A DNA stretch of 64,000 bases, from positions 64,001-128,000 of the forward strand of contig OZ243956.1 of the NCBI GenBank assembly GCA_965214405.1, in the 5' to 3' direction. How positions within the stretch are numbered: position 1 is the stretch's first letter; each line of letters begins with the position of its first letter. This document shows positions 22,594 through 39,908 of this stretch, piece by piece. The position numbers and the translations under genes were made by a program. A model generated the notes under the pieces. It was not told where the DNA came from, ran no database searches, and was given only the letters and a program-made list of their open reading frames with translations. The DNA is from Trueperaceae bacterium. GTDB taxonomy: Bacteria > Deinococcota > Deinococci > Deinococcales > Trueperaceae.

Positions 22594-22594
22594 C

Positions 22595-22852: not shown

Positions 22853-22985
22853 CGTTGCAACGTTAGTGTGAACGTCACCGCGATCACCACGCCGAACGTC
22901 ACAGTAAAGGTCACAGTATAACGTCGGTCGTGCGGGCGCGTTTAGCGGCGAGGGAGCTCTCTACAGCCCTTGACCACGTCATCTG

Positions 22986-23582
22986 TTAGTTGAGCTGCGT
23001 CTCGAGCGTGCGCGGTCCCGCCCTCTGTTTATCGACTGGGGGTCGCGCTTCGTCGGGGGTAATGATGGGAGCGAGAAGTGCGTGGACGGTCCTGAGCGCG
23101 TAGCTTTGCCTCTCGGGCAGCCATAAGAGGGGCAGGTCGGCCCCGCGAAAGGCGGCCTCGAGGCGCGCGCGCCGCTTTTCACTCGCTTGTTTATGTATCC
23201 CGGACGGGTGTTCGGACTCCAAATTGATGGCGCAAAGCACGGACAAGTCGCTCGCCCGGCAGACGACGTAGTCCACCTGACCCTGTAGAAGCCGCCGCGC
23301 ACGCCTCCCAAAGAGGCCGGGTCCGAGCTCTAAAACCTCGGCCACGCGCACCTTGCCGAAAATACGGTAGTTGCTCCCCAGGGCTTTGTCGAGCGCACCC
23401 AAAAGAGCACGTTCGGTGGGCGAAAAAAAGATCGTCCTCTGGACGCGTAGTCCCTTTGGCACCTTGGACGCTCTTGACAAGAGCGCCACAATACCGACGA
23501 CCAGAAGCAGGGCCACGACGAGCGCGGTGAGGAGCGCGGCGGGCAGAAAAAAGGAGGATTCGGCAAAGCGTGTAACGTCCAC
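22986..23582 (-). CDS. DUF2726 domain membrane-anchored protein
   Basis: N-terminal TM helix; FSPTERAL, IFGKVRVAEV, VDYVVC, AGLPLL-like motifs. Confidence 0.7.
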   Translation of the reverse strand: MDVTRFAESSFFLPAALLTALVVALLLVVGIVALLSRASKVPKGLRVQRTIFFSPTERALLGALDKALGSNYRIFGKVRVAEVLELGPGLFGRRARRLLQGQVDYVVCRASDLSVLCAINLESEHPSGIHKQASEKRRARLEAAFRGADLPLLWLPERQSYALRTVHALLAPIITPDEARPPVDKQRAGPRTLETQLN

Positions 23583-23866
23583 GGGAGTCCTTTCACGAAG
23601 AGAACGGAGCTGGCGTTAAGATGAAAGTTCTCTTAGAAAGAGTGTGCAACAGTCTCACGGTTTTGTCTGTGAGGAGTTAGCTGAGGCCTCCGTTCACGGC
23701 TTCACAAGCATGACTCACGCCTTGACCGTGCTAAGGTAGACGCCTACAAAAACTTGGAAGCTCCGTTACGGCTGGTTAACATGCTCGAGACCCCCTCACT
23801 ACCCTCTAATGCTCACACCACACCTGAGCAGAGCCTTCTTTGTGGCTCGTTTAAGTTGGCGGCCGC

Positions 23867-26800
23867 GTGAGCCGTACTCTTGGCAAGGCGCAACGGCTCA
23901 CCGAACTGCTCGAGCTTCTCAAGCTCAAAGCCTGGACGAGCCGCGAACTCGCGGAACGCTTCGGGGTGCCCATCCGCACGGTTCAGCGCGACCTAGACAC
24001 GTTACGCGAGAGCGGGCATGGGGTCGCAACCTCAGAGGATTTCCGCCACCGCCTCACGCCGACGGGTTCGTCGCTTAACGCCGTCGAAGGACTCGCAGTT
24101 CACGCGGCGGTAAGGCTCTTGTACCACCACTCACCTACCCAGAACCGGTATTACCGCTCGGCTTTGGAGAAGCTGGCGGCGCTGCTGCCCGAACCTGCCA
24201 GGGGAATCGCGGCGGCGAGTGCGCAAGACCTGAAAGTGCGCCCCGGTGACGACCGGACTTTGGAGTTGGTCGCGCGGGCCTGGTTCGAGGGCAAAGTTCT
24301 GCGGTTCAAGTACCTCGCCCCGGATAGTTTTGAACCTGCCTGGCGCGAGTTGGAAACATATCTGCTCGAGGTCAGCCGCACTAACTTGGCCCTTTACGCC
24401 ATCGGTCAGGAGCGCACGTTCAACCAGGTGCTCACCTTCAAATTGTCCCGTATGAGCGATGTTCGTGTTTCGGACGATGCCTACGCCATCCCTGAAAGCT
24501 TTGCGCCGAGCGAATACTTGAGCGCTGCTTGGGGCGTGATGGGTGGGCAAGGGGACAAGGTGGCTAAAGTGCGCTTGCGCTTTGAGCCCGAAGCCGCCTC
24601 CCGCATCAAAGAGGGCGGCTATCCCAATTTGAGGGTAGAGAGGGAACTAGCGGACGGCTCGCTCGAGGTCGAAATCAAAGCAGGCACCGACAACACGGGC
24701 TTTCCAAAAGAACTCCTCCCCTGGGTACAGAGCTGGGGGCCACGGGTCGATGTTCTTGCGCCCAAGGCGCTGCGCGAACGCTGGCTGAGCGAGGCCGGTG
24801 CCGTCGCGTTGAGGCACCCTCACTTAAAAACGAGGCTCGCGTCACTAGATGACGCACCCAAAGGACAGACTGAACCTATGACGAATCTTTCAGCGAAGGC
24901 GGCGGCCCTGTGGGCCAAGAGTGGTGAAGACGAGCAGGGCTATAGCCTCGTGGGACACTTGTTGGACGTGGCGGCGGTGGCGCACGCCCTGCTCGAGCGC
25001 GAACCCCCGCAGACCCTGCGGCTTTACGCGGAGGATGTGGGGCTCGAGCCCGGCGACGCTAAGAAATGGATAGCGGCACTGGCGGGCTTACACGACATCG
25101 GCAAGGCGACCCCGGCCTTTCAGCGGCAGTGGGAACCGGGACGGCTGGTGGTCGAGGCAGCGGGGCTTACGTTTAGCAAGGGCGACAAGGGCACCGCACA
25201 CGGAAAACTCTCGCAGAAAATCTTGCAAGACGAGCTCAAAATCTACGGTTTAGGTAAGAGGCTCGCCGCTCAAGTTGCCGACGCCGTAGGCGCACATCAC
25301 GGTCTGCGAACCGCGAAGGGCGACTTGTCAGACAACGTCGTTCCGCAACAAGACATGGGCAACAATGCGTGGCAAGAAACCCGGCAAGAGCTGCTAACCG
25401 AGTTTCTAAAGGCCGTAGAAGTCGTTCAAATCTCACCCCCGATCACCGCCGCACTCACGGGCCAGGGCTTTATCCGATTAGCAGGCTTGACCAGCTTTGC
25501 CGATTGGATTGGCTCGACAGTTGACTTTTTTCCTACCGACCGCAAAGTAGAGAATTTGAGAGAGCACTTTCTCGACTCGTTGCTAAGGGCGCGCAAGGCC
25601 CTGAACGCGATAGGCTGGGAGCGCCGCGAGCCTTTAGCGGCGGAACCTCGAGCCTTCAACACCATCTTTCCTTTTGAGCCCAACGGTCTTCAAAAGCAAA
25701 TCGTCAACCTTGTCGAGCAAACGCGTGAACCCTCTCTTCTCATCGTCGAAGCGCCGATGGGGGAAGGAAAAACGGAGGCTGCCTTCTACGCCCACGTCAC
25801 TTTGCAACGGCAGTTGGGGCACCGAGGCTTGTACGTGGCGCTGCCCACGCAGGCAACGGGTAACGCCATGTTTGAGCGCACCAAAAACCTTCTCAGCACC
25901 TTCGAGCGCGACACGCCACCCGACTTGCAGCTTTTACACGGCTCGAGCCTGCTCAACGACGCTTACGCCACCATCCAAATCAAGGATGTAGATGGAGTGG
26001 ACAACACAGAGAGCGAGGTGTGGGCCAGAACCTGGTTCACCAGCAAAAAGCGGGCGCTGCTTTCGGAAAACGGGGTGGGCACGGTTGACCAGGCGCTCCT
26101 CAGCGTTCTAAACATCAAACATCAATTTGTGCGCCTGTGGGGATTGGGTAACCGCACGGTTGTTTTGGATGAAGTCCACGCGTATGAGCTTTACACGAGC
26201 AAGCTCATTGAGCGCCTAGTCTGCTGGCTGCACGCGCTCGGCTCGTCGGTCATCATCATGAGCGCGACGCTGCCCACCGCCAAACGACTAGATTTAGTCA
26301 AAGCCTTTGGCGGCGGCGCGGCCGAGGAGCCCGTCTCTTACCCACGCATCACGCAGGTGCTGGGCGGAGAGACCAAGGAGGTTTCGTTCTCGGTGAGAGA
26401 GCAGAAGCCTATGAGCTTGAAAAGGGTCAGCCTAGATCTCGAGACGGTAGCAAACCTTCTCACAGGCTTGATGACGGACGGCGGTTGCTCGGTGGCTATT
26501 CTAAACACGGTGCAGCGGGCGCAAACTCTTTACAGCCTGTTTGGGGAGGGTGAAGGTCTTGAGGCCGGAAAGCGTTTACCCGACGGCACCGAGGTCTATC
26601 TGTTCCACGCCCGTTATCCGGCGGAGGAGCGGAAAAAGCGGGAGGAGGCGGTGCTGGGGAAGTTCGGCAAGGGCGGAGAGCGCCCAGCCAAGGCCATTCT
26701 CATCGCCACGCAGGTGGTTGAGCAGAGTTTAGACCTTGATTTTGACGTGATGGTGAGCGACTTAGCGCCCGTCGATTTGCTCTTGCAGCGTGCCGGACGG

Positions 26801-27556
26801 ATGCACCGCCACGAGCGCGAACGTCCCGCCGCCCACGCGTCGCCCGTCCTTTACGTGGCAGGGCTGACCGACGCCGAGACGCTACCGGATGTCAGCAGCG
26901 AATACTTCGATTGGGTTTACGAAGCGTTCACGCTTTACATGACGTGGTGGACCTTGGCTGATAAGGAAGTTATTGCGTTACCTGAAGACTTTGAGCCGCT
27001 TATCAAAGCCGTATACGGCGAAACCGATTTTACGGCGCTGCCGGATTTCGCCCGTGAGGTGGTTGAGCAAAGCCGCGCGGACCAGGAAGGAGAAGCCGAC
27101 ACCCACAAGCGAAAAGCTGTCAGCTCAGCTAACGTGATACCTCTGCCAAACATCTACCCGACCACCGACGGCGTCAGTTCGGTTGTCAAGAGCGAGGACG
27201 ACGAAGACCCCAGCCTTCACGAGCACTACCGGCCCGCGACGCGTCTGGGCGATCCCAGCGTCACGGTCATCCCCTTACATAAAAAGGATGACAAGCTTTA
27301 CCTCGAGCCCTCCTACGAAACCGAAATCGTGTTGAACAAGGAACCCTCATGGCAAGCGGCGAGAACCCTCTATCTGCAACACCTCAAGCTGAGCCGTAAA
27401 GGTCTTGTGTTCGAGCTTGTTAAATATCCAGTACCCGCTTGGCAGAAGCAACCGCTGCTGCGTTACTGCTTCCCGCTCACTTTTGAGGAGAGGGTGGCAG
27501 TGGTTGGGAAATTGACCCTTCGCTATGACGATGCGCTAGGGATTGTGTATGGGTAG
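23867..27556 (+). CDS. cas3: HTH-WYL-WCX regulator fused in frame to type I-E Cas3 (HD nuclease + SF2 helicase)
   Basis: aa 1-~320: ELAERFGVPIRTVQRDLDTL HTH, WYL core (LYAIG..TFKLSRM), WCX (VRLRF..WVQSWGPRVDVLAPKALRE). From M338: WAKS, HLLDV, LHDIGK, AHHG, ADWIGS, APMGEGKT, DEVH, SAT, QRAGRMHRH. Confidence 0.92.
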   Translation: MSRTLGKAQRLTELLELLKLKAWTSRELAERFGVPIRTVQRDLDTLRESGHGVATSEDFRHRLTPTGSSLNAVEGLAVHAAVRLLYHHSPTQNRYYRSALEKLAALLPEPARGIAAASAQDLKVRPGDDRTLELVARAWFEGKVLRFKYLAPDSFEPAWRELETYLLEVSRTNLALYAIGQERTFNQVLTFKLSRMSDVRVSDDAYAIPESFAPSEYLSAAWGVMGGQGDKVAKVRLRFEPEAASRIKEGGYPNLRVERELADGSLEVEIKAGTDNTGFPKELLPWVQSWGPRVDVLAPKALRERWLSEAGAVALRHPHLKTRLASLDDAPKGQTEPMTNLSAKAAALWAKSGEDEQGYSLVGHLLDVAAVAHALLEREPPQTLRLYAEDVGLEPGDAKKWIAALAGLHDIGKATPAFQRQWEPGRLVVEAAGLTFSKGDKGTAHGKLSQKILQDELKIYGLGKRLAAQVADAVGAHHGLRTAKGDLSDNVVPQQDMGNNAWQETRQELLTEFLKAVEVVQISPPITAALTGQGFIRLAGLTSFADWIGSTVDFFPTDRKVENLREHFLDSLLRARKALNAIGWERREPLAAEPRAFNTIFPFEPNGLQKQIVNLVEQTREPSLLIVEAPMGEGKTEAAFYAHVTLQRQLGHRGLYVALPTQATGNAMFERTKNLLSTFERDTPPDLQLLHGSSLLNDAYATIQIKDVDGVDNTESEVWARTWFTSKKRALLSENGVGTVDQALLSVLNIKHQFVRLWGLGNRTVVLDEVHAYELYTSKLIERLVCWLHALGSSVIIMSATLPTAKRLDLVKAFGGGAAEEPVSYPRITQVLGGETKEVSFSVREQKPMSLKRVSLDLETVANLLTGLMTDGGCSVAILNTVQRAQTLYSLFGEGEGLEAGKRLPDGTEVYLFHARYPAEERKKREEAVLGKFGKGGERPAKAILIATQVVEQSLDLDFDVMVSDLAPVDLLLQRAGRMHRHERERPAAHASPVLYVAGLTDAETLPDVSSEYFDWVYEAFTLYMTWWTLADKEVIALPEDFEPLIKAVYGETDFTALPDFAREVVEQSRADQEGEADTHKRKAVSSANVIPLPNIYPTTDGVSSVVKSEDDEDPSLHEHYRPATRLGDPSVTVIPLHKKDDKLYLEPSYETEIVLNKEPSWQAARTLYLQHLKLSRKGLVFELVKYPVPAWQKQPLLRYCFPLTFEERVAVVGKLTLRYDDALGIVYG
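24839..24871 (+). promoter_or_regulatory. Putative WYL-regulator site and internal promoter for cas3, inside the fusion linker
   Basis: Perfect palindrome GCGTCA-CTAGA-TGACGC, N10, CAGACT, then N6 and the in-frame ATG at 24878; near-identical copy upstream of cas8e. Confidence 0.6.
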
Positions 27557-27606
27557 CTTTACCCAGAAGCCTTGTTATGGTTGCTGTGCAAGCGCGGAAG
27601 TTAGCC

Positions 27607-27635
27607 TTGACTAACCTCCCTATTTCGACTACTAT
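27607..27635 (+). promoter_or_regulatory. Sigma70 promoter of the TA operon
   Basis: TTGACT-N17-TACTAT; SD GAGGA before GTG 27651. Confidence 0.65.
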
Positions 27636-27650
27636 GCTATCGAGGACGTA

Positions 27651-28010
27651 GTGAGCTCTACGCCGTACATCGTTTACGAGTACGAGGACGAAAATGGTTA
27701 CTCCGAGTTTCGGGAGTGGCGCAAGGCGCTTAGACGCTCCAATCCTAGAGCTTCTGCGAAAGTCGATTGGCTCATCGCGCTGCTCGAGGACAAAGGTACA
27801 ACACTGTCGTTTCCCTACGTCAGTCATATAGACGGGCCGATTTATGAACTGCGCGGTAAAACCGGACGTAACACCGTACGCATTTATTACTGGCAACAGG
27901 ACAAAGAGGTATTCATCGCCGCCGCGGGCGAGGTGAAGCAGCAGAACCAAGCTGACCGCAAGCTTATTAGGAAAGCTTTGGCAGCTTACGAGGAATATAA
28001 CAAGGAGTAA
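27651..28010 (+). CDS. RelE/HigB-like (Gp49-type) toxin
   Basis: GPIYELR...NTVRIYY motifs; toxin-first order before an XRE gene. Confidence 0.8.
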   Translation: MSSTPYIVYEYEDENGYSEFREWRKALRRSNPRASAKVDWLIALLEDKGTTLSFPYVSHIDGPIYELRGKTGRNTVRIYYWQQDKEVFIAAAGEVKQQNQADRKLIRKALAAYEEYNKE

Positions 28011-28014
28011 CGCC

Positions 28015-28410
28015 ATGCCAAAACGTCCCTTGAAACGAGCGAGCGACCTAAGCCAAGAGTTTTTGCAAGACCCCGGTTACGCTGCTCTATACCGTGAGGT
28101 CGCTAACGAAGAGATTGGAGCGGCGCTGCGCACAGTGCGCGAGGCTAAGGGGTTAAGCCAGCGTGAGGTTGCCGAGCGCATGGGCGTGACGCGTCCACGT
28201 GTGTCGCAGATTGAAAGTGTCGAGGGTACGGCGTTGGCGCTCGAGGTGCTCAGCCGCTACGCCCGCGCGGTAGGGTGCCGCCTCGACATCACTTTGAAAG
28301 ACGCCGAGACCAACCATGAGGTTGCTGCGCTGTTTGTACCAACGCTCGAGGCTACCGCGCCAAAACCGCCCGGCGCGGAGCCTTATGAAAAAGCAGAGGG
28401 GGTAGCCTGA
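28015..28410 (+). CDS. XRE-family HTH antitoxin (HigA-like)
   Basis: LRTVREAKGLSQREVAERMGVTRPRVSQIES HTH; 4 nt after the toxin stop. Confidence 0.85.
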   Translation: MPKRPLKRASDLSQEFLQDPGYAALYREVANEEIGAALRTVREAKGLSQREVAERMGVTRPRVSQIESVEGTALALEVLSRYARAVGCRLDITLKDAETNHEVAALFVPTLEATAPKPPGAEPYEKAEGVA

Positions 28411-28465
28411 AAGATAGTTCCGCACCACGTAGGCACAACGGTTATGGGTAGAATGAGTTTGAAAC

Positions 28466-28555: not shown

Positions 28556-28562
28556 GGTGGGT

Positions 28563-28962: not shown

Positions 28963-28967
28963 CCGTG

Positions 28968-29001
28968 GTGAGGCGCATCCCGCGCCTCACTTCTTTATTT
29001 T
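28968..29001 (+). terminator. Rho-independent terminator
   Basis: GTGAGGCGC-ATCCC-GCGCCTCAC followed by TTCTTTATTTT. Confidence 0.85.
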
Positions 29002-29005
29002 GGCG

Positions 29006-29038
29006 ACGTCACTACATGACGCACCCCCCTCTTACACT
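29006..29038 (+). promoter_or_regulatory. Putative WYL-dependent promoter of the Cascade operon
   Basis: ACGTCA-CTACA-TGACGC, N10, TACACT; no canonical -35; SD AAAGGAGG before the cas8e ATG. Confidence 0.65.
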
Positions 29039-29058
29039 GCTTTTGAAAGGAGGCCGAG

Positions 29059-30555
29059 ATGTTTAACCTCATCCATGAACCTTGGCTGCGGGTCGAAAAC
29101 CCAGACGGCTCGCTAGGCCAGGACTCGCTAAAGGGGGTTTTATTAAACGCCCACCGCTACGCGCGGCTGGCCCACCCCTCCCCCGCCGTGCTCCCGGCGC
29201 TGCACCGCTTTCTACTGGCGGTGCTGTACCGGGTACTGGACGAACCACGCAGTACCGATGAAGGGGTTGATTTGTTCAAACAGGGTCGGTTTCCGGCGGA
29301 GCGCGTCGGTGCTTATCTCGAGCACTGGCAAGACCGCTTCGACCTGTTCCACCCTGAAAGGCCCTTTTACCAGGTGCCGGACTCGGAAGATAAGGTGTCA
29401 GGGGTCGCCCGGCTCGCAGCCGAACTCGCCAGCGGCACGAACAAACTCCTCTTCGACCACACCGCGGAGGCCGACCCGCCGGAGTTGACGCACGCCGAAA
29501 TCGCGCAACTGCTCGTGACCCGGCAGATGACCGCCATCCCCGAAGGCGCGGGCTACAGCCCCAGCCCGGCGGGCGGCGCGGCGTTCGTGCTGCCGCAGGG
29601 TCGCAACCTGTTCGAGACGCTGGTGCTCAACCTCGTTCCTTATTCTGAGGAGGAGAACGAGGACGACGCGCCCATTTGGGAAGGGGCTACGCCGAAGAGC
29701 GCGGCGGTAAAAGCCGCCAAGCCGCGCGGCTCGAGAGGGCTTACCGAACGTTACACCTGGCTAACGCGCATCGTTAAGTTGCAAGAACCCGAGGGTGACG
29801 CGCCTGTGTCGGCGCTGCATTATGCGGCAGGCATCAAGTTCGATGGCGGCGACAGCCCCGACCCCATGTTGGCTTACCGCAAAGATGAAAAGCGCGGGCT
29901 CCTCCCGGTATCTTTCAACAAGTACAAGGCGTTCTGGCGGGACTTTCAGGCCCTAATACCCAATCCCGACAGCGGAAGCTACTTAGCGCCCCAGACGGTA
30001 AAACACGCTCGCAACATATATGAAGAATTAGAGCGCACCGACCCCCTCACCTTACTGGTTTCCGGCCTGAGCAATGACAAGGCCAAGGTCGTGCTGTGGC
30101 GTACCGAACAGTTCAACGTGCCGCAGGTCCTCCTTCAAAATCCGGGGGCTTACGCCGAGTTGACGCGGCTGCTCGAGTACGCCGACAACGGCGGGCGCAC
30201 CCTCTACGGCGCGACGCAGCGCTTGGCGGAAAAGTTGCTGAGCATTGGCGAACGTAAACCCGACCCCGCCGACGTTCGCAACCTGGCCGCGAGTTTTCCC
30301 GCCAGTATGCACTACTGGAGCAGGCTCGAGACCCGCTTTCCCGAACTGCTGGAGCGCTTTGAGACTCAGACCTTTGATGAGCGGTTCAGTTGGTGGTTAG
30401 GGCAAATCACCCTTGTAACGCGCGAAGCCTGGGAGCTTGCCTTAAAGAGCGCCGGGGAAAACGAGCGCGCCTGGCGGGCCGGGGCCGAGGCGAGCAAGGT
30501 CATCAACACCCACCTCAAACGCCTGCGCGAACAGACAGCCGAGCCAGCCCCATAG
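29059..30555 (+). CDS. cas8e: Type I-E Cascade large subunit Cas8e (CasA/Cse1)
   Basis: FNLIHEPWL, LHRFLLAVL, DRFDLFHPERPFYQ, GRNLFETLVLN, DPM, AFWRDF. Confidence 0.93.
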   Translation: MFNLIHEPWLRVENPDGSLGQDSLKGVLLNAHRYARLAHPSPAVLPALHRFLLAVLYRVLDEPRSTDEGVDLFKQGRFPAERVGAYLEHWQDRFDLFHPERPFYQVPDSEDKVSGVARLAAELASGTNKLLFDHTAEADPPELTHAEIAQLLVTRQMTAIPEGAGYSPSPAGGAAFVLPQGRNLFETLVLNLVPYSEEENEDDAPIWEGATPKSAAVKAAKPRGSRGLTERYTWLTRIVKLQEPEGDAPVSALHYAAGIKFDGGDSPDPMLAYRKDEKRGLLPVSFNKYKAFWRDFQALIPNPDSGSYLAPQTVKHARNIYEELERTDPLTLLVSGLSNDKAKVVLWRTEQFNVPQVLLQNPGAYAELTRLLEYADNGGRTLYGATQRLAEKLLSIGERKPDPADVRNLAASFPASMHYWSRLETRFPELLERFETQTFDERFSWWLGQITLVTREAWELALKSAGENERAWRAGAEASKVINTHLKRLREQTAEPAP

Positions 30556-30563
30556 GAGGCATC

Positions 30564-31154
30564 ATGACAGAAACCGTGACAAACAGCACGACAAACACGC
30601 CCTCGAGCAAACAAGCAGATGTAGCCGAACGCTTCATCAGTCACCTGGACAAACTCAATCCAGCCAAAACGCCGGGAGCCAAGCGGCAACACTTAGCCGA
30701 GCTTAGAAAAAGTCTCAGCTTCGACTTAGGCACGCACGTTCCGGCCTTTCCTTATGTTGAGCCATTTGTAGCAACGCTGGACGAGAGGACAGGCTACTGG
30801 CGACGCGCTATGTTCTACCTCGTCGCGGGGCTCTACGCCTCTCATCCAGAGTCCGCCTCTCAGGGGGGTTTCGGCAAGGCGATGGCGGTTCTTAGTCACA
30901 GACGCGAGAGCGGGAGCCTGGAGAAACGTTTTCTCGCGCTCTTGGCTGCGGAAGAAGCAGGGCAGCTCGTCTACCACTTGCGCCAACTCGTCAGCCTGCT
31001 CAAGGCCGAGGGTGTCGGCCTAAACTACGCAACGCTGCTCCGCGACCTGTTCGGGTGGCAACACCAAGACCGCTATATTCAGCGCCGCTGGGCGGGGCAG
31101 TATTACGGCTTTACCTCCGATGCTCCCGACACCTCCGCCACAAAAGAAACCTAG
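30564..31154 (+). CDS. cse2: Type I-E small subunit Cas11 (CasB/Cse2)
   Basis: [52 protein letters not shown]. Confidence 0.92.
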
Positions 31155-31165
31155 AAAGGATTCCT

Positions 31166-32323
31166 ATGAAAGCACTTTTAGAAATTCACGCCCTACAAAA
31201 CTTCGCCCCCAGCAACTTGAACCGCGACGACACCGGCAGCCCCAAAGATTGCGAGTTCGGCGGCTACCGCCGCGCCCGCATCAGTTCGCAAAGCCTAAAG
31301 CGGGCCATGCGGACCTACGTTCGCGCCGAGAAGCTTCTTGAGGATGACGCGTTGGCTGTGCGTACCAAGCGCGTAACCGCCGAACTGGTTGGGCAACTTA
31401 AAAAGAAGGGTCGGGACGAGGCCGAAGCTGGCAAGGTGGTCGAACTCGCGTTGGCGGGCCTGTCGCTCAGCGTAGACGAGGGCAAGACGCAGTACCTTCT
31501 CTACCTTGGCAAGAGCGAAATTCGGGACATGGCGAACAGCATTGACGCGTATTGGGACGAACTACTCGAAGCTGTCCCCGCAGAGGATGACAAGAAAAAA
31601 TCAAAAAAGGACGCAAAGGGCAACGTTCCAAAAGACCTCGTTGCCGCTTTGGAAAAAAGCTTAGACGGCGGCAAAGCCGTGGACTTAGCCCTCTTCGGGC
31701 GGATGCTCGCCGACCTGCCCGAGAAAAATCGGGACGCCGCCTGTCAGGTGGCCCACGCCATCAGCACCAACGCGGTGCAACGCGAGTTCGACTTCTATAC
31801 CGCCGTCGACGACCTCAAGCCGGAGGACAACGCGGGCGCGGACATGCTCGGCACGGTTGAATTTAACAGCGCCTGCTATTACCGCTACATTGCGCTCGAC
31901 TTAGAGAAGCTAGCCGCCAACTTGCAGGGCGACGGTGAGCTTTTAGAAAAAGGTCTTAGGGCTTTTCTCGAGGCGAGCTACTTCGCCGCGCCCTCGGGCA
32001 AACAGAACAGCTTTGCGGCCCACAACCCGCCGGGTTTTTTTGCCGTGAGCGTGCGCGCTAATGCCGCGCCGCGCAACCTCGCCAACGCCTTTGAGAAGCC
32101 GGTGCACCCGGACCGGGAGCGGTCCCTTACCGAGGCCTCGGTAGCGCGTTTAGACGAGCAGTGGGCTGCTTTTGACAAGGCGCTCGGCACGAGCGACGCA
32201 AACGAGATTGCGGTGCTCAAGCTTACGGGAAACGTGGCGCACTTGGCGACGAACGTACGTGAGAGCCTAAAGGACGTCGTCACCTCGAGCGTCGCGGCAG
32301 CCCAACGTGCTGTGGGTGCGTAA
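31166..32323 (+). CDS. cas7: Type I-E backbone Cas7 (CasC/Cse4)
   Basis: [59 protein letters not shown]. Confidence 0.95.
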
Positions 32324-32988
32324 TGCCGACGCTTTTATTACGTCTCGCCGGACCCATGCAAGCCTGGGGCACGAGCAGCCGGTTCGAGCAGCGGGACACG
32401 CACCTAGAGCCCAGTAAAAGCGGGGTGGTAGGGCTCTTGGCCGCCGCTTTGGGGCGCGACCGCAGCGAGGACGTGAGCGACTTGGCGGCCCTCAAAATGG
32501 GTGTGCGGGTGGACAAAGAAGGCGTCTTAAAACGCGATTACCACACCGCGCAAGAGATTGTTCAGGCGGACGGTAAGCTGAACAGCAACCGGAACATGCG
32601 CAACTCGGTGAGCGAGCGCTTTTATTTGGCGGACGCGGTTTTTTTGGTCGGGCTCGAGCATCCTGATAAAGCCTTTCTGACCGCTACCCACCAAGCCCTC
32701 AAAACCCCCCGCTGGCCGCTCTTCTTGGGTCGTAAGTCTTTCGTGCCCAGCCCCGGCGTCTATCTGCCTGGTGGACTGAGGGACGAACACCTCGAGACGG
32801 CACTCACGACCTTTCCACCCCTTCATCCCGCAGCGTCGGAGCGCGCGACCCTACGCTTCGCCACTGAGGACTCGCAGGGCGCGCAACTCCGCGCCGACCA
32901 GCCGCTCGGCTCGTTTTCAGCGCGCAGTTTTGGACAGCGCCGCGTGCGCGTTGAAAGCCGCTCCAACCCCTTCAAGGACGCCACATGA
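32323..32988 (+). CDS. cas5: Type I-E Cas5 (CasD)
   Basis: LLLRLAGPMQAWG, PSKSGVVGLLAAALG, DYHT, YLADA, LFLGRKS. Confidence 0.95.
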   Translation: MPTLLLRLAGPMQAWGTSSRFEQRDTHLEPSKSGVVGLLAAALGRDRSEDVSDLAALKMGVRVDKEGVLKRDYHTAQEIVQADGKLNSNRNMRNSVSERFYLADAVFLVGLEHPDKAFLTATHQALKTPRWPLFLGRKSFVPSPGVYLPGGLRDEHLETALTTFPPLHPAASERATLRFATEDSQGAQLRADQPLGSFSARSFGQRRVRVESRSNPFKDAT

Positions 32989-33593
32989 GCCTCCACCTCT
33001 CCAAACTCACGCCGAACCTGCGCAGCGCCAAAGCCCGCCGCGACCTGCAAAACCCTTACGACCTGCACCGCACCCTGAGCCGGGGCGTGGCGCGGGAGGA
33101 TGAGCGGCTGTTGTGGCGGGTTGACGGAACGAACCAGCCCAGCATTTTGGTACAAACCCTTCACCAACCCGACTGGTCTTACCTCGTCGAGGATGTGCCC
33201 CCCGGTTACCTGAAGGAATCTCCGGCGTCCAAATCCGTAGACCTCGCTTTTGTAAAAGGTCAGACCCTGACGTTTCGCTTGAGGGCAAATCCTACGGTAA
33301 AACGGACGCTCTCGGGCAAGAAAAAGCGTCTGGCTCTTTACGAGGTGGAGGAGCAGCTTGGCTGGCTCCGGCGTAAGGCGGCGGGGGGCGGCTTTAACGT
33401 CTTGTCCGCCACCTCACTGGGTCAGGAAACGCTCGAGGCTAAGAGAAACGCTCAAACCGTGACGCTTCACGCCGTCACCTTTGAAGGGCGGTTGATTGTG
33501 GTGGACCCGCCAACGTTTTTGGCAACGCTCAAAACGGGCCTCGGCTCCGCCAAGGGCCTCGGCATGGGCTTACTTTCCATTGCGAGGGCCTGA
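32985..33593 (+). CDS. cas6e: Type I-E Cas6e (CasE/Cse3) crRNA processing nuclease
   Basis: YDLHRTL, FRLRANPT, Gly-rich loop GLGSAKGLGMGLL. Confidence 0.93.
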   Translation: MSLHLSKLTPNLRSAKARRDLQNPYDLHRTLSRGVAREDERLLWRVDGTNQPSILVQTLHQPDWSYLVEDVPPGYLKESPASKSVDLAFVKGQTLTFRLRANPTVKRTLSGKKKRLALYEVEEQLGWLRRKAAGGGFNVLSATSLGQETLEAKRNAQTVTLHAVTFEGRLIVVDPPTFLATLKTGLGSAKGLGMGLLSIARA

Positions 33594-33594
33594 C

Positions 33595-34578
33595 ATGGCA
33601 AGTCTACGCAACCTCCGCGAACTCCCCAAATTCCGCGACGGCCTTTCCTACCTCTACATCGAGCGCGGGCGCGTCGAACAGGACGCCAAGGCCATCGCCT
33701 GGTACGGCGAAGAAGGCAAGGTGAGCGTGCCCGCCGCCGCTTTGGGCGTGCTCATGCTCGGCCCCGGCACAAGCATCACCCACGAGGCGGTCAAGGCTCT
33801 GGCCGACAACGGCTGCTTAATCAACTGGGTGGGCGAGGCGGGCGTGCGCTTTTACGCGGGCGGCGCGGGCGAAACGAGGAGCAGCGCCAACCTCATGCGC
33901 CAAGCGGCGTGGTGGGCGGACCCCGGTAAACACCTTCAGGTGGTGCGGCGCATGTACACCATGCGCTTCGATGAGCGCTTGTCGCCCACGCTGACCCTCG
34001 AGCAAATCCGCGGCAAAGAGGGCGTGCGGGTGCGCACCGTCTACGCCCAGGCAAGCCGGGAGTGGGGTGTGCCCTGGCGCGGGCGCTCCTACCGCCGCGG
34101 GCGCTGGGGCGACGCCGACCCCGTCAACCGCGCGCTCTCCGCCGGGGCGGCTTGCCTTTACGGCGTCTGCCACACCGCCATCCTCTCGGCGGGCTACTCC
34201 CCCGCGCTCGGCTTCGTCCACACCGGCAAGCAGCTCTCGTTCGTTTACGATATTGCCGACCTCTACAAAACCGAGGTGCTCGTCCCCGCCGCCTTTAGGC
34301 TCGTGGCCGAATCCGAAGAAGGAATTGACAGCCGCGTCAGACATCATCTTAGAGACACAATGCGAGAGTCGAGGCTGCTCGAGCGCGTGGTCGACGACCT
34401 CCACAGCCTCTTCAGCAACGACGCCGGGAAGGGCGAACGCTTCGCCGCGGACGGCGCGGCGCCCGGTGAACTGTGGGACCCGGAGGGCAACGTGGCCGGG
34501 GGGGTGAGTTATGGTCGTGATGACGCTGGAGAAGGTGCCGACGAGTCTGCGTGGGGAGCTGAGCCGCTGGATGATTGA
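33595..34578 (+). CDS. cas1: Type I-E Cas1
   Basis: LMLGPGTSITHEA, WVGEAGVRFY, IRGKEG, SPALGFVH, SFVYDIADLYK. Confidence 0.95.
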   Translation: MASLRNLRELPKFRDGLSYLYIERGRVEQDAKAIAWYGEEGKVSVPAAALGVLMLGPGTSITHEAVKALADNGCLINWVGEAGVRFYAGGAGETRSSANLMRQAAWWADPGKHLQVVRRMYTMRFDERLSPTLTLEQIRGKEGVRVRTVYAQASREWGVPWRGRSYRRGRWGDADPVNRALSAGAACLYGVCHTAILSAGYSPALGFVHTGKQLSFVYDIADLYKTEVLVPAAFRLVAESEEGIDSRVRHHLRDTMRESRLLERVVDDLHSLFSNDAGKGERFAADGAAPGELWDPEGNVAGGVSYGRDDAGEGADESAWGAEPLDD

Positions 34579-34864
34579 GGTTTCTACGGGCGTGTTCGTC
34601 GGCAAACTGAGCGCCCTGGTGCGCGACCTGCTGTGGGAAAAGGTGAGCGAGAACAAACGCGCGGGGCGCTGCTGTCAGGTCTACCGCACCAACAATGAAC
34701 AGGGCTTCGCTATTCGGATGGTGGGCGATTCGGAAAGGAGCGTGATCGACTTAGACGGTGTACAATTGGTCGCGGTGAAAAACGCGACCTGGGAACGGAT
34801 GTTTGTCGAGTCTGCGGAGGACCATGACAACCCAACAGGAGACATAGAGGCCCCTGAAGCTTAG
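34511..34864 (+). CDS. cas2: Type I-E Cas2
   Basis: MVVMTLEKVPTSLRGELSRWMIEVSTGVFVG, NNEQGF, DLDGVQL. Confidence 0.93.
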   Translation: MVVMTLEKVPTSLRGELSRWMIEVSTGVFVGKLSALVRDLLWEKVSENKRAGRCCQVYRTNNEQGFAIRMVGDSERSVIDLDGVQLVAVKNATWERMFVESAEDHDNPTGDIEAPEA

Positions 34865-34884
34865 TTTTTGCGTCTGGGTCTAGT

Positions 34885-37800
34885 CTATTCCCCACGCAGG
34901 TGGGGATGAACCGGGCAGGTTCTGGGTAGCCTCCACCCAGCCCGCCTATTCCCCACGCAGGTGGGGATGAACCGGAGAAGCGCCCCCTTCCACCCGCCTC
35001 TTGAGCCTATTCCCCACGCAGGTGGGGATGAACCGTGCGTGCGCAGCGCCTCGATCTGGGGACGCTCCTATTCCCCACGCAGGTGGGGATGAACCGCGAC
35101 CCCGGCGAGCGCTCGAGCGCGCACATCACTATTCCCCACGCAGGTGGGGATGAACCGACGCCCGGATTTTCTCCCCTCTCCAGCGAGCCCTATTCCCCAC
35201 GCAGGTGGGGATGAACCGGAGCCTCTACACACGTGCATCGCCCGCTGCACTATTCCCCACGCAGGTGGGGATGAACCAGCGCCCGTCTTCACTTTTTTGC
35301 TTGAGGTCCCCTATTCCCCACGCAGGTGGGGATGAACCGGCGGTGCTTTTCGAGGGCTCGGACGTGGAGTGCTATTCCCCACGCAGGTGGGGATGAACCG
35401 TCCACGTCGCAGGCGCTGAGGGGCTGGCCGTCCTATTCCCCACGCAGGTGGGGATGAACCGGTGCCGGGGGAGACCTTGACGCGCTTGTCTCCCTATTCC
35501 CCACGCAGGTGGGGATGAACCGGGAGCGCTGGCACATCCCGCAAGCGGGCGTGGCTATTCCCCACGCAGGTGGGGATGAACCGCCATCAGCAAGTTCGGC
35601 GCGGGGGTGGGGGACCTATTCCCCACGCAGGTGGGGATGAACCGGTGTCGCGCTGCAAGCGGTAGCGTACGGTCACTATTCCCCACGCAGGTGGGGATGA
35701 ACCGTCATAAACAAACAAGTCATAGTTGACGATCAACTATTCCCCACGCAGGTGGGGATGAACCGTTCCTGCCCGACGAGTGGTTCCCTTACGCGGACTA
35801 TTCCCCACGCAGGTGGGGATGAACCGCCTCGAGCAGCCCCAACCACCAGAACTCCCCCTATTCCCCACGCAGGTGGGGATGAACCGCCGGGCGAGGCGGT
35901 CACGCTTAAATCAGGAGACTATTCCCCACGCAGGTGGGGATGAACCGGTAAACGCACCCAAATTGATGCCGACGACGCCCTATTCCCCACGCAGGTGGGG
36001 ATGAACCGTCGGCCTTGAAAAAGTCGATGACGCCCCCGCCTATTCCCCACGCAGGTGGGGATGAACCCACCTCGGCCAGTGCGTTTTGACTAGCTGAGGC
36101 CTATTCCCCACGCAGGTGGGGATGAACCGCCAACCGCTTCACCATCCACGTGATGGCCGCGCTATTCCCCACGCAGGTGGGGATGAACCGCCGTCCGCGT
36201 AGTCCCAGCTCTCCACCACCCCCTATTCCCCACGCAGGTGGGGATGAACCGGGCACCCGCTTTTCCTCCCCCGCGAAGACCGCCTATTCCCCACGCAGGT
36301 GGGGATGAACCGGGGTCGCCCGAACTGGACGACCCCTCCGCGATCTATTCCCCACGCAGGTGGGGATGAACCGGGGCAACCATGAAAAAGCGCGTCATCG
36401 GCGCGCTATTCCCCACGCAGGTGGGGATGAACCGGGTTTGGCTGAACTTTCTGGGGTGCGTGAGGACTATTCCCCACGCAGGTGGGGATGAACCGCAAGC
36501 CATCCTTATGCGGAATGTGAACAACCCCTATTCCCCACGCAGGTGGGGATGAACCGTCCACACTCACATGTACATCCCCCTGCCAACCCTATTCCCCACG
36601 CAGGTGGGGATGAACCGTGAGGGCGCGGCTTTCCAGCACGCCCGCCATACTATTCCCCACGCAGGTGGGGATGAACCGCCGCCACTTCCGCCTCTTGCCT
36701 CTTGAGGGCTCTATTCCCCACGCAGGTGGGGATGAACCGCGTCACGCCGCCCTCTCTCGTCACCAAGGTCACTATTCCCCACGCAGGTGGGGATGAACCG
36801 AACTTTGTCTCGCAAAGAACACAGTGATAACCTATTCCCCACGCAGGTGGGGATGAACCGCATGGACAACATTGACACGCAAGTACAGACTTCTATTCCC
36901 CACGCAGGTGGGGATGAACCGGCCATGCTAGACAAGGGTGCAACCGAGATACCTATTCCCCACGCAGGTGGGGATGAACCGAGCCGCCGCCGCCCGCGAA
37001 AGTGCTAATGACCCTATTCCCCACGCAGGTGGGGATGAACCGTCTCTTTAAGGCCTAGCGCGAAGAGGTCCGGCCTATTCCCCACGCAGGTGGGGATGAA
37101 CCGTAACCGTCGCTTGCTTGATAGTACGGGATACCCTATTCCCCACGCAGGTGGGGATGAACCGGTCACGGCGCTTTCGTATGAGTCTATTAACGCCTAT
37201 TCCCCACGCAGGTGGGGATGAACCGGTACTCCTCGACGCCCTAGCCCACGCTGGGGCCTATTCCCCACGCAGGTGGGGATGAACCGGCCCCTCCATCGCC
37301 GCCGCTAAGCGGTTCCCACTATTCCCCACGCAGGTGGGGATGAACCGTATCAGGCGCTCACTGGGTCCATAGAAGAACCTATTCCCCACGCAGGTGGGGA
37401 TGAACCGCTGTCGCACTGACATAAACTTTAGTAGTAGCCTATTCCCCACGCAGGTGGGGATGAACCGTTCAAACAGACTCTCGGTGTTTCTCTGTGACGC
37501 TATTCCCCACGCAGGTGGGGATGAACCGTTTTCGGGCGGGGTAGACAATGGCCATCCCGACTATTCCCCACGCAGGTGGGGATGAACCGGAGCGTTAAAT
37601 ACGACGAAACGGGAGAACCCCCTATTCCCCACGCAGGTGGGGATGAACCGCGATAAGTGAAGTGATAAGTGACCCAAAAAGACTATTCCCCACGCAGGTG
37701 GGGATGAACCGATACTACGCCCGGAAATTGAACGTGACGACCTCTATTCCCCACGCAGGTGGGGATGAACCGTAGAGGCCCTGAAGATTTCCTGTCAGCT

Positions 37801-39908
37801 TGTTCTATTCCCCACGCAGGTGGGGATGAACCGGAGGGCTCTTCGATGAGTGACGCGACGACTGACTATTCCCCACGCAGGTGGGGATGAACCGTGCTAA
37901 CAGTAGGGTGTCGTTCTGAGTCGGAACTATTCCCCACGCAGGTGGGGATGAACCAGGGTGCCGCCCGCGTCCGGCTCGCCGTCCCGCCTATTCCCCACGC
38001 AGGTGGGGATGAACCGCTCCTGGTAGTGCTCCTGGCTCTGCTGGGAGCCTATTCCCCACGCAGGTGGGGATGAACCGACGAGCCCTTGAAAGTTGATCAG
38101 GTTGTCCTCCTATTCCCCACGCAGGTGGGGATGAACCGGATGACGTACCACTCATCCACTTCACGCTTCCTATTCCCCACGCAGGTGGGGATGAACCGGT
38201 TACGAATGAGGCCGAGGTAGCCAGCGTGCTCTATTCCCCACGCAGGTGGGGATGAACCGCCCATGAACCGGGCGACGAGCTGCACGACTGGCTATTCCCC
38301 ACGCAGGTGGGGATGAACCGAACCGAGAAAAGAGCGGAGCCGCGCCTCAACCCTATTCCCCACGCAGGTGGGGATGAACCGGTGGACATTGTCGCCGCTG
38401 AACGGCGTCTGGTCTATTCCCCACGCAGGTGGGGATGAACCTAGCCCTGAGCGGCTTGCACTGCGCCGATGAGCTATTCCCCACGCAGGTGGGGATGAAC
38501 CGGCGCAGGAGATGCTGGCGAAACTTCCGCTCACTATTCCCCACGCAGGTGGGGATGAACCCATTACCAAAAAGCGCGCGTTGCCACCCAACCACTATTC
38601 CCCACGCAGGTGGGGATGAACCGCAGATGGGCGTCTCCGAAGAGCAGTTCGCCAACTATTCCCCACGCAGGTGGGGATGAACCGCCTGACAACACTTACC
38701 CACTGAGTCGGGTTCCTATTCCCCACGCAGGTGGGGATGAACCGTCCCTTAACGTTCAATCAGCAGCTTCACCCGCTATTCCCCACGCAGGTGGGGATGA
38801 ACCGCTTAGGCGTACGCACAATAGTGGCTATCTCTGCTATTCCCCACGCAGGTGGGGATGAACCGATTCTGGGTTCCGAGCTCGAAGACTGGCCTGCCTA
38901 TTCCCCACGCAGGTGGGGATGAACCGCATAAGACGGTGCTTGACGCTGTGAACATCACTATTCCCCACGCAGGTGGGGATGAACCGAGTAAAGCGGCGGC
39001 GTAGCGGGGGCGGTAGGCCTATTCCCCACGCAGGTGGGGATGAACCGCATGACAGGAGGGTGGGAAGACATCGCCCTGCCTATTCCCCACGCAGGTGGGG
39101 ATGAACCGCCTCCAAGGCAACTATGAAGCCATTGACCCCCTATTCCCCACGCAGGTGGGGATGAACCGCACCAATCCACAGGTGTGTTTAGCAAAAAACC
39201 TATTCCCCACGCAGGTGGGGATGAACCGATGGTGGGCGAGGAGTGGTCTCTGTAGATGCTCTATTCCCCACGCAGGTGGGGATGAACCGAGGTCGGCGCT
39301 GTAGGCCCTCGCGTACAGGTCCTATTCCCCACGCAGGTGGGGATGAACCGGTGGCCGCCGAGAGCCCGTCCGCCTCGAGCGCCTATTCCCCACGCAGGTG
39401 GGGATGAACCGCTGAAGTCGATCCCGAGAACTCCGGCAAGCTCCTATTCCCCACGCAGGTGGGGATGAACCGTTCGCCACCGACCAGGCGGGCGGCTCTA
39501 TGGCCTATTCCCCACGCAGGTGGGGATGAACCGTTCACCGTATGAGCCGCTACGATGCTTCCCGCCTATTCCCCACGCAGGTGGGGATGAACCGCGGGAC
39601 TCGGTGAAGATCGCTTCGTGATTCGCTATTCCCCACGCAGGTGGGGATGAACCGTGTGGGTTTTCGCTTTCTAAGAGTGGGTTTCCTATTCCCCACGCAG
39701 GTGGGGATGAACCGGATACCCTCGTCAAAGCGCCCCAGCTCATCCCCCACGCTCGACCTATTCCCCACGCAGGTGGGGATGAACCGGACGCTGTGGGGCT
39801 GTGGGGGATGTGCGAATCCTATTCCCCACGCAGGTGGGGATGAACCGCGTCACCTCGTCGTCGGTCGAAAAGATGAGCGCTATTCCCCACGCAGGTGGGG
39901 ATGAACCG
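34885..39908 (+). CRISPR. Type I-E CRISPR array, 83 repeats / 82 spacers
   Basis: 29-nt repeat CTATTCCCCACGCAGGTGGGGATGAACCG; counted by hand: 63 spacers of 32 nt, 18 of 31 nt, one of 43 nt; orientation from similarity to the I-E 3' handle ATGAACCG. Confidence 0.98.

Follow-up and report, generated by a model that had tools for sequence, protein, structure and literature searches.

Regulators with WYL domains are common beside cas genes, and to our knowledge the control of type I systems by such regulators is largely untested. Fusion of a WYL domain to Cas3 in some type I systems was described by Makarova et al. in 2014 (Front Genet 5:102, PMC4012209). Supplement 7 of that work lists six entries with an HTH+WYL+HD+SF-II helicase architecture, from Meiothermus silvanus (Mesil_3385), Meiothermus timidus, Treponema caldaria, Meiothermus ruber, Anaerolinea thermophila and Roseiflexus sp. 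RS-1 (PMC4012209). A literature search returned no experimental study of a WYL-Cas3 fusion. The reviews checked do not mention such fusions, and the 2025 CRISPR classification paper mentions WYL solely for type VI.

The closest regulators that have been characterized, DriD and PafBC, are activated by ssDNA (PMC9186387; PMC11804915). The operator consensus of the DriD family is CGNC-N7-GNCG, in which R37 and R41 of DriD read the conserved G and C (PMC10853764). PafBC acts through a -26 motif, immediately upstream of the -10, to activate promoters without a functional -35 (PMC11804915; PMC9186387). BrxR and CapW, the WYL repressors of BREX and CBASS, are described as HTH-WYL-WCX dimers that act from a palindromic site to control the neighbouring defence operon (PMC9122601). 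Leaderless mRNAs are the rule in Deinococcus deserti; the start codon follows immediately on the -10 box, and a -35 is not conserved (PMC4007540).

The locus described here was found in a window of 64,000 nucleotides, the whole stretch of DNA analysed (Table 1). A single open reading frame heads a full type I-E locus including its array, and runs from a GTG at 23867 through 1229 open codons to a stop at 27554-27556 with no internal stops. All of its Pfam domains exceed the curated cut-offs. Cas3_HD (residues 349-555) is matched over the whole profile (1-207 of 207, E 1.8e-46), as is Cas3_C (residues 1126-1226; 1-107 of 107), with DEAD at residues 609-806 and Cas3-like_C_2 at 872-984 between them. 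In an alignment of 32 Cas3 sequences, that of the window (G000) among them, the columns holding H/D, GxGKT, DEVH, SAT and QRAGR do not vary; we take these to be the HD, Walker A, DEVH, SAT and QRAGR motifs of Cas3. Judged by its HD domain, SF2 helicase core, C-terminal domain and I-E locus, the C-terminal moiety is a complete type I-E Cas3. The ORF and Pfam matches bear out the first-pass annotation, which had described one 1229-residue frame with an intact Cas3 of 892 residues starting at M338. Between cas3 and cse1 lie a Gp49/HigB-like gene and an HTH_3 gene, an inserted pair of toxin-antitoxin-like character; the pair occupies the same position in a relative (G156) and, frameshifted, in another (G171). 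For cse2, cas7 and cas1 the true starts probably lie downstream of those in the ORF list.

Table 1. Features of the fused gene and the surrounding locus, in window positions
Feature	Position	Strand	Basis
Fused ORF, 1229 aa: HTH-WYL-WCX regulator, linker, type I-E Cas3	23867..27556	+	ORF, Pfam, unitigs
Winged HTH, residues 10-51	23894..24019	+	Pfam HTH_11
WYL domain, residues 131-201, presumed ssDNA-binding module	24257..24469	+	Pfam WYL, 36.2 bits (cut-off 21.8); PDB matches are DriD C-domain structures
WCX dimerisation domain, residues 234-313	24566..24805	+	Pfam WCX, 46.4 bits
Linker, residues 314-337 (24 aa)	24806..24877	+	Comparison with split relatives
Predicted operator O1, perfect palindrome GCGTCACTAGATGACGC (CGTC-N7-GACG), linker codons A-S-L-D-D-A	24839..24855		DriD-family consensus match
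-10-like hexamer CAGACT (A at position 2, T at position 6), 10 nt past O1, 6 nt before ATG	24866..24871	+	Alignment with relatives
ATG of M338, ancestral cas3 start	24878..24880	+	Comparison of fused sequences
Cas3 moiety, 892 aa from M338	24878..27556	+	Pfam, alignment
Cas3 HD	24911..25531	+	
Cas3 RecA1	25691..26284	+	
Cas3 RecA2	26480..26818	+	
Cas3 C-terminal domain	27242..27544	+	
Gp49/HigB-like gene	27651..28010	+	Pfam
HTH_3 gene	28015..28410	+	Pfam
Terminator-like hairpin, 10 pairs, then T-rich tail	28967..28991	+	Between upstream genes and putative cse1 promoter
Predicted operator O2, ACGTCACTACATGACGC, before cse1	29006..29022		Motif scan; identical copy in G156
-10-like hexamer TACACT, 10 nt past O2	29033..29038	+	Sequence
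GGAGG, then cse1 ATG	29049..29053; 29059	+	Downstream of TACACT
cse1, cse2, cas7, cas5, cas6e, cas1, cas2 (type I-E)	29059..34864	+	Pfam
CRISPR array, 29-nt repeats, 61-nt period, about 80 repeats	34884..39717	+	Repeat analysis

The N-terminal module carries HTH, WYL and WCX in the order of the DriD/PafBC family and is, to judge from this domain content, a complete regulator. The PafC/DriD-like character proposed for it earlier agrees with two comparisons. The best PDB match of the AlphaFold model in Foldseek is DriD (8tp8, E 7e-17), and a profile alignment with DriD extends along the whole protein (E 1e-13), placing R37, T38 and R41 on the same residues of DriD. A phmmer search of PDB with the HTH alone returned only designed repeat proteins and weak matches, and the matter was settled by the profile search against DriD. 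The regulator module is modelled at a pLDDT of 81.6, while residues 330-337 of the linker fall below 50. The recognition helix, which spans residues 36-48 in the model, carries R37, T38, Q40 and R41; R37 is invariant and R41 is present in at least 90% of 28 homologues. Recognition-helix arginines of this kind occur here together with matching palindromes, the predicted operators, at the putative cas promoters, as would be expected of a DriD/PafBC-family regulator. The equivalent of R204, a ligand-contacting arginine of DriD, is Leu in the fused ORF; its loss was rejected as a trait of the fused clade, since split relatives also have Leu or Gln. A complex prediction of Cas3 residues 1-655 with the regulator module scored 0.00 and is uninformative in either direction.

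The first-pass annotation had proposed confirming the junction in reads and surveying relatives for WYL-Cas3 architectures, and both have now given a positive outcome. Logan unitigs from two runs (X1 record 3 and X2 record 11, both 24758-25120) span the join with no differing letters and no gaps, the runs being from one sample that may be the assembly's own source; none of the stretch was found in runs X3 and X4. The same fusion is present in other genomes, and the six fused rows (G000, P0003, G156, which is the same as P0004, P0005 and G171) form one clade with an SH-aLRT of 100 in a quick Cas3 tree, nested among split I-E Cas3 sequences. An assembly slip was rejected as the source of the join on the grounds of the unchanged unitigs and the fusion in other genomes. 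A homopolymer frameshift in the A5 run of the linker was also rejected, as the downstream frame is that of the relatives' tail and the unitigs concur. Comparison of G000 with G156 gives a dN/dS of 0.135 (regulator), 0.140 (linker) and 0.133 (Cas3), and values of about 0.13 indicate that both halves are under purifying selection. No second close copy of the regulator was found in G000, where the sole other match has an E value of 3.3e-6 and 27% identity. The fusion could be a neutral or decaying accident, or an artefact, with a non-functional regulator half; a single base change suffices to produce it, and the copy in G171 has two frameshifts. However, this reading is very unlikely in view of the dN/dS of the regulator half, the agreement of unitigs with assembly, the existence of intact fused proteins at 82%, 77% and 56% identity, and the retention in the fused ORF of all residues invariant among the 28 regulator homologues.

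The linker contains a conserved cassette in which a 17-bp palindrome is followed after 10 nt by a -10-like hexamer and, past a further 6 nt, by the cas3 ATG. Both O1 and O2 fit CGNC-N7-GNCG, and O2 with its 3' flank is identical to O1 at 19 of 21 positions. Of 33 loci, 23 have the core motif at most 130 nt from the start of cas3, compared with a background of 0.08 per 130-nt window, and the other 10 lack it. The full geometry is present in 15 of the 33 and nowhere else in the 384,686 nt scanned, and the cassette is conserved across several families of one order. Loci whose recognition helix reads RT[VIL][QE]RD have the operator in 13 of 14 cases, versus 4 of 12 for other helices. The operator, both spacings, the hexamer and the ATG are kept in all three fused genomes with DNA compared. 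In G000, P0003, G156/P0004 and P0005, the four fused sequences whose join is intact, a Met occupies the position of the cas3 start, and of two Mets nearby in G171 the cassette indicates the first. Between G000 and G156 the linker differs by L to V and D to N, yet both operator half-sites are intact, which suggests constraint at the DNA level. Genome-wide, motif plus geometry gave 24 matches versus 16 in a reversed-sequence control and is not enriched, and the exact 17-mer pattern occurs at two places, the same as in the control. No wider regulon was found across the genome, the two cas sites being the only extended palindromes before suitable genes. The case for the operator therefore rests on position and on conservation among related, non-independent loci.

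The palindrome could instead be read as an RNA hairpin, serving as an attenuator or processing site and not as a protein-binding DNA site, and a 6-bp stem with a 5-nt loop is possible in the window. However, the two arms vary between T and A independently, the combination of GCGACA with TGACGC in three loci (L003, L010 and L020) would break a pair, a U-tract is absent, and the conserved positions are exactly those that DriD reads on DNA. We consider a hairpin very unlikely. As for the hexamer, a consensus sigma-70 scan gave no match at either cassette, as expected where a -35 is absent, and the arrangement looks like a leaderless cas3 promoter. Relatives have TAGGGT, TAAGGT or TAGAAA at this position, each containing the regulator's stop, and G171 has GATAAT. 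The hexamer of the window lacks the usual first T, and given this the internal promoter may be weak or dead.

Most relatives conform to the earlier statement that WYL genes are normally separate ORFs beside cas genes. In relatives of the same order a separate regulator gene lies directly upstream of cas3, in many cases with a single in-frame stop between them. Among the 35 best-scoring loci surveyed, a selection that favours in-frame pairs, 28 have both genes on one strand; of these, 3 are fused, 13 are out of frame and 12 share a frame interrupted by one or two stops. The stop of the regulator is the first triplet of the -10-like hexamer in five loci (L003, L007, L008, L033 and L034) and lies inside the 6-nt spacer in two (L002 and L020). 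Because the stop is often in or beside the hexamer, in frame with the cas3 ATG, a single base change fuses the genes. In split relatives the stretch equivalent to the linker is the 3' end of the regulator gene together with the putative cas3 promoter, and the fusion appears to have arisen once, through loss of the regulator's stop codon. Programmed read-through as a cause of the in-frame pairs was rejected, since 12 in frame against 13 out of frame is no excess given the selection; promoter geometry accounts for such pairs.

Taken as a whole, the explanation that we favour, and hold to be somewhat probable, is an inherited stop-loss fusion that keeps an internal DriD-type cas3 promoter, yields two products and acts as a dimer on both operators. 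The ORF, domains, conservation, selection, motif and geometry are observed; operator binding, start sites, ligand and direction of regulation are inferred. An upstream promoter would give the regulator-Cas3 fusion of about 135 kDa, and the internal linker promoter would give free Cas3 of about 100 kDa from a leaderless mRNA. The fusion protein, the only close regulator copy in the genome, would bind O1 and O2 as a dimer, and binding of ssDNA by the WYL domain would raise expression of cas3 and Cascade. The regulator module very probably controls the cas genes, and the earlier proposal of such a role gains from the predicted operators before the cas3 ATG and before cse1. As operator, -10-like hexamer and ATG are all kept in the linker, free Cas3 is probably still made, which weakens tethering or autoinhibition of the nuclease as the main role suggested for the fusion.

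Cas3 might, on the other hand, be made solely as the 135-kDa fusion, the linker palindrome being just a binding site or a relic. The WYL domain would then, along the lines of the first-pass annotation, sense the ssDNA of the attached Cas3, with positive feedback on the cas promoters, or would tether or autoinhibit it. Retention of the fusion across the clade, purifying selection on both halves, the poor -10 that CAGACT makes and the ssDNA activation of DriD and PafBC (PMC9186387; PMC11804915) all agree with this, as does a type I-C family of about 1080 aa in which P0006, P0008 and P0009 have no Met at the join and which probably gives the fusion product only. The cassette, however, is intact in every fused genome compared, with an even better hexamer in G171, and the half-sites hold while linker residues change. 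Split relatives, moreover, have the same regulator-operator arrangement and no fusion, so that the regulation does not require one. We regard production of the fusion alone as rather unlikely.

The direction of regulation bears on a further alternative. With transcription starting at the ATG, the operator would span about -39 to -23, with its proximal half-site at about -27 to -24; this position differs from that at didA and would also suit a repressor. The module could then act as BrxR and CapW do and block the cas3 and cse1 promoters until released by a ligand. Provided that the hexamer is the -10, the operator overlaps the region that RNA polymerase would occupy. Promoters of Deinococcus can generally do without a -35 (PMC4007540), so that an activator is not obviously required, and the structural matches include BrxR and CapW (E 1e-9 to 1e-7). 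However, the two activators DriD and PafBC match more closely, the base-reading arginines and operator consensus are those of DriD, and PafBC activates from -26 without a -35, close to the proximal half-site here. Repression is a real possibility, if one we would put somewhat short of probable.

An extension of the favoured explanation, which we consider improbable, is a sensor-effector chimera in which the dimeric factor carries two Cas3 and ssDNA reeled out or set free by Cas3 during interference is passed in cis to the WYL pocket, switching on the cas promoters. If this were true, one interference event would activate the internal cas3 promoter and the Cascade promoter in a self-priming immunity burst, the operator-bound fusion protein would also block its own read-through transcript, and with the stop codon placed in the -10 box a one-base change would turn split genes into a fused one or back again. 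More generally, the locus offers a testable circuit, with a DriD-type operator at fixed spacing to a -10-like box before both cas3 and Cascade. A stop codon inside a promoter is a route by which two genes can fuse in frame by one mutation, and a long fused ORF may still encode a free downstream protein through an internal leaderless promoter, a warning for annotation. As a natural experiment, the fused and split relatives bear on whether immunity is altered when an ssDNA sensor is physically joined to a nuclease that produces ssDNA.

Several known systems resemble parts of this arrangement. In the PIF1 helicase of Thermotoga elfii a WYL domain is joined to a helicase and is described as an accessory ssDNA-binding module. 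That WYL domain stands by itself on the C-terminal side of an SF1 helicase, lacks both HTH and WCX, and is not a transcription factor. BrxR and CapW are more distant (13-16% identity), and they are repressors that are not fused to an effector. PafBC of mycobacteria, a WYL activator that responds to ssDNA and operates through sigma adaptation, acts from a -26 motif, and the proximal half-site here lies at a similar distance from the hexamer, but PafBC is a heterodimer with a non-palindromic site and a weaker structural match (E 1e-12). The best match in both structure and profile is DriD of Caulobacter crescentus (PDB 8tp8, 9pfq), an ssDNA-activated WYL transcription activator of 327 residues, compared with about 337 for the module here. 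The operator fits the DriD consensus and has an AT-rich centre as in DriD's. Identity to DriD is only 22-24%, however, and DriD is free-standing and controls DNA-damage genes, whereas the predicted targets here are cas genes. Its didA site ends at -36 at a promoter with a -35, while the site here would extend to about -23.

The fusions of Makarova et al. have the same domain order, with HTH-WYL(-WCX) N-terminal to Cas3, and the architecture is not new but was catalogued in 2014. The homologue search recovered proteins of about 1080 aa in Meiothermus and Calidithermus. The one locus of such a fusion that was scanned is type I-C, with Cas5d, Csd1 and Cas7, whereas that of the window is type I-E, and no strict operator-like motif was found in 19 kb around two of these fusions. 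Where the I-E fusion has M338, the three sequences named above lack a Met. The Cas3 half of G035, the one representative with a listed Cas3 match, is matched weakly (E 1.1e-5, about 120 residues). The type I-C locus, this weak match and the nesting of the fused clade among split I-E Cas3 sequences argue against common descent with the catalogued proteins of about 1080 aa. On these comparisons, the present fusion is an independent type I-E case of a catalogued architecture, with an internal promoter-like cassette.

The regulator and Cas3 are encoded by one uninterrupted reading frame. The description of a 1229-residue fusion in the first-pass annotation proved right in every detail, including the intact Cas3 moiety of 892 residues counted from M338 (24878).

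Features of the fused gene, its predicted operators and the surrounding cas locus (window nucleotides, or residues of the fused protein)
Feature	Position	Strand	Description
Fused ORF	GTG 23867 to stop 27554–27556	+	1229 codons, no internal stops
HTH_11	residues 10–51		Pfam, above curated cut-off
WYL	residues 131–201		Pfam, above curated cut-off
WCX	residues 234–313		Pfam, above curated cut-off
Cas3_HD	residues 349–555		Pfam, entire profile covered, E 1.8e-46, above curated cut-off
DEAD	residues 609–806		Pfam, above curated cut-off
Cas3-like_C_2	residues 872–984		Pfam, above curated cut-off
Cas3_C	residues 1126–1226		Pfam, entire profile covered, above curated cut-off
Predicted tryptic peptide across the regulator/Cas3 join			GQTEPMTNLSAK
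O1, predicted operator in the linker	24839–24855		GCGTCACTAGATGACGC; window cassette
Hexamer CAGACT	24866–24871		10 nt after O1; then GAACCT and the cas3 ATG at 24878
Gp49/HigB-like gene and HTH_3 gene (toxin-antitoxin-like pair)	27651–28410	+	between cas3 and cse1
O2, second predicted operator	29006–29022		ACGTCACTACATGACGC; with 3' flank, 19 of 21 positions identical to O1
Order downstream of O2			10 nt, TACACT, GGAGG, cse1 ATG 29059
cse1, cse2, cas7, cas5, cas6e, cas1, cas2	29059–34864	+	downstream of the fused ORF
CRISPR array	34884–39717	+	29-nt repeats, period 61 nt

The locus is a complete type I-E system. The names of homologues (Meiothermus, Calidithermus, 'Deinococcota bacterium') assign the organism to the Deinococcus-Thermus group. 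The toxin-antitoxin-like insertion is common to the window, to G156 and, in frameshifted form, to G171 (two other genomes of the order), and thus accompanies the fused clade. Where split relatives lack the insertion, cse1 directly follows cas3. Between the toxin-antitoxin pair and cse1, the CRISPR repeat occurs in three degenerate copies (28415–28441, 28467–28493 and 28526–28550), apparently what is left of a small array, and a small open frame of ~61 codons (28778–28963) lies just 5' of a terminator-like hairpin (28967–28991). Upstream of the fused gene is a divergent gene for a DUF2726 protein (22986–23582, reverse strand), and the 284 nt between the two genes showed no operator-like site. 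The G+C content of the cas locus is 0.56–0.60, versus 0.63–0.68 in its flanks (window 22000–32000), and genomes of different families are interleaved in the Cas3 tree. Together these features suggest that the locus has moved horizontally.

The join is also present in read-derived data. In two sequencing runs of one sample, Logan unitigs match 24758–25120 with no differing letters and no gaps (word depths ~20 and ~123); as the sample is possibly the source of the assembly, this agreement tests the assembler and not the biology. A search with residues 1–335 against 5.8 billion proteins, confined to those of 675–2151 aa, returned 12 proteins. Four of them have the domains of an I-E Cas3: the protein of the window itself, P0003 (82% identical in the regulator part), P0004 (77%) and P0005 (56%). 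Across 301 genomes of the order, 187 contain a match at E <= 1e-30, and stop-free full-length matches occur only in the window's genome (G000) and in G156, the genome of P0004. The copy in G171 is fused at the join but frameshifted twice, first after the HTH and again ~40 codons from its end, which could reflect either a pseudogene or assembly errors. In a quick maximum-likelihood tree of Cas3 (36 rows) the six fused rows, among them the identical rows of G156 and P0004, form a single clade with an SH-aLRT of 100. The fusion is confirmed, and its recurrence in other genomes supports it independently. It is conserved and under purifying selection, with dN/dS between G000 and G156 of 0.135 in the regulator, 0.140 in the linker and 0.133 in Cas3. 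No second close copy of the regulator was found in G000. In G092, another genome of the order, a regulator match lies in a 1259-aa open frame immediately upstream of a cas3 match that is in a different frame (contig C4, 1260021–1262416), and this may be either a further fusion or merely a long GC-rich open frame.

As the first-pass annotation had held to be usual for WYL genes, most relatives have the regulator as its own gene of ~320–350 aa, on the same strand and directly upstream of cas3. Both genes lie on one strand in 28 of the 35 loci fetched (3 fused, 12 sharing a frame interrupted by one or two stops, 13 in different frames). The loci are best-scoring matches and so biased toward in-frame pairs, and the in-frame proportion supports no conclusion. 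The remaining seven comprise one divergent pair and six that lack one gene inside the locus.

A 17-bp palindrome, GCGWCA-N5-TGWCGC with the core CGNC-N7-GNCG, is kept upstream of the cas3 starts. After exactly 10 nt comes a hexamer whose second base is A and whose sixth is T (e.g. TAGGGT, TAAGGT, TAGCGT, GATAAT or CAGGAT), and a spacer of exactly 6 nt then leads to the cas3 ATG. Of 33 loci, 23 have the core motif no more than 130 nt from the Cas3 N-terminus, against a background of 0.08 per 130-nt window; one of the 23 (L018), a GC-rich sequence in a different position, is probably a chance match. Fifteen of the 33 show the full geometry, which is present nowhere else in the 384,686 nt of the same loci, both strands included. 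Without the unpublished genome G253 (locus L022), on which no conclusion depends by itself, the counts are 22/32 and 14/32, and the loci, which cover five families, are kin and not independent trials. The cassette is whole in the three fused genomes examined at the DNA level, the hexamer being CACACT in G156 and GATAAT in G171. The latter, in the frameshifted copy, is the best -10 hexamer among the fused genes. Between G000 and G156 the linker changes from ASLDDA to ASVNDA and both half-sites are unchanged. The palindrome was also considered as an RNA hairpin. Its arms vary between T and A independently (GCGACA occurs with TGACGC in L003, L010 and L020), which fits a protein site and not a hairpin.

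The position of this cassette also accounts for the fusion. In five split loci (L003, L007, L008, L033 and L034) the hexamer opens with the regulator stop, 12 nt upstream of the ATG and so in frame with cas3, and in two others (L002 and L020) the stop lies inside the 6-nt spacer. With stops in these positions, a single base change fuses both genes. The window has CAG where relatives have TAG, or GAA where they have TAA, so that either could be the lost stop; the Cas3 tree, in which the fused clade has an ambiguous sister group, does not decide between them. In the split locus L040 (G069, contig C1, 2432–9545), ~3.5 kb including an HTH_3 gene separate the regulator gene from cas3, and the operator (6840–6856) adjoins cas3 and not the regulator gene.

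The second copy of the operator, O2, lies just 3' of a strong terminator-like hairpin, in an arrangement that is identical in G156.

The regulator has a DriD-like HTH. An AlphaFold2 model of residues 1–337 (mean pLDDT 81.6, 28-row alignment) has as its best PDB match DriD with ssDNA and its DNA site (8tp8, E 7e-17), followed by PafBC, CapW and BrxR. A profile of 28 homologues aligns over the full length of DriD (E 1e-13), placing R37, T38, Q40 and R41 of the window on R37, T38, E40 and R41 of DriD; R37 is invariant in the 28 sequences, at least 90% of which also have R41. According to the paper on the DriD-DNA structure (PMC10853764), DriD sites have the form CGXC(X)7GXCG around an AT-rich centre, and the conserved G and C are read by Arg37 and Arg41. 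Both O1 and O2 fit this consensus exactly, and binding of the regulator to them is predicted. The operator is present in 13 of the 14 loci with an RT[VIL][QE]RD helix versus 4 of the 12 with other helices. A genome-wide scan found no enrichment of the motif with its geometry (24 matches versus 16 in a reversed control), and only O1 and O2, the cas sites, stand out, so the regulator looks local.

These features could be combined as follows. The hexamer would serve as a -10 box for a leaderless cas3 mRNA. In Deinococcus deserti, 60% of mRNAs lack a leader and have a -10-like box immediately 5' of the start, with no conserved -35 (PMC4007540). The regulator module would bind O1 and O2 as a dimer and, by likeness to DriD (PMC9186387) and PafBC (PMC11804915), whose ligand is ssDNA, its WYL domain may sense ssDNA, a signal that would raise expression of cas3 and Cascade. 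If the ATG is the start site, the proximal half-site of O1 lies at about -27 to -24, which recalls the -26 motif of PafBC promoters without a -35 (PMC9186387, PMC11804915). This position suits a repressor too, and an activator is therefore only slightly favoured. Two products would be expected, the fusion from a promoter upstream of 23867 and free Cas3 from the internal cassette. Beyond what the split relatives achieve, being fused may bring a further function, such as feedback by Cas3's own ssDNA, tethering or autoinhibition. The interpretation initially placed on the fusion is partly supported.

Fusions of this kind have been catalogued before. Makarova et al. (PMC4012209) state that some type I systems have Cas3 joined to a WYL domain, and their supplement 7 lists six proteins with the architecture 'HTH+WYL+HD+SF-IIHelicase', from Meiothermus silvanus, M. 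timidus, Treponema caldaria, M. ruber, Anaerolinea thermophila and Roseiflexus. Homologues of this group turned up here as proteins of 1069–1084 aa, and at least seven of the order's genomes have them. The one placed in a locus, a 1079-aa fusion in L036 (G175, contig C3, 8495–18066), belongs to type I-C, with Cas5d, Csd1 and Cas7, in contrast to the I-E fusion of the window. The I-C genes of L036 are followed by RAMP and Cas10/Cmr2-like genes, so that a type III module adjoins this fusion. The ~1080-aa proteins have no methionine at the join in the three sequences examined, and the Cas3 half of the one from G035, the sole representative with a listed Cas3 match, matches that of the window weakly. 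On these grounds the window fusion is a type I-E case, independent of those listed, of an architecture already catalogued, and the novelty of the fusion itself is modest. The portions of the literature covered by our search contained no experimental study of a WYL-Cas3 fusion and no account of the present operator. What the present case adds to the catalogued fusions is the conserved operator-promoter cassette, which explains how the fusion arose and leads one to expect two products.
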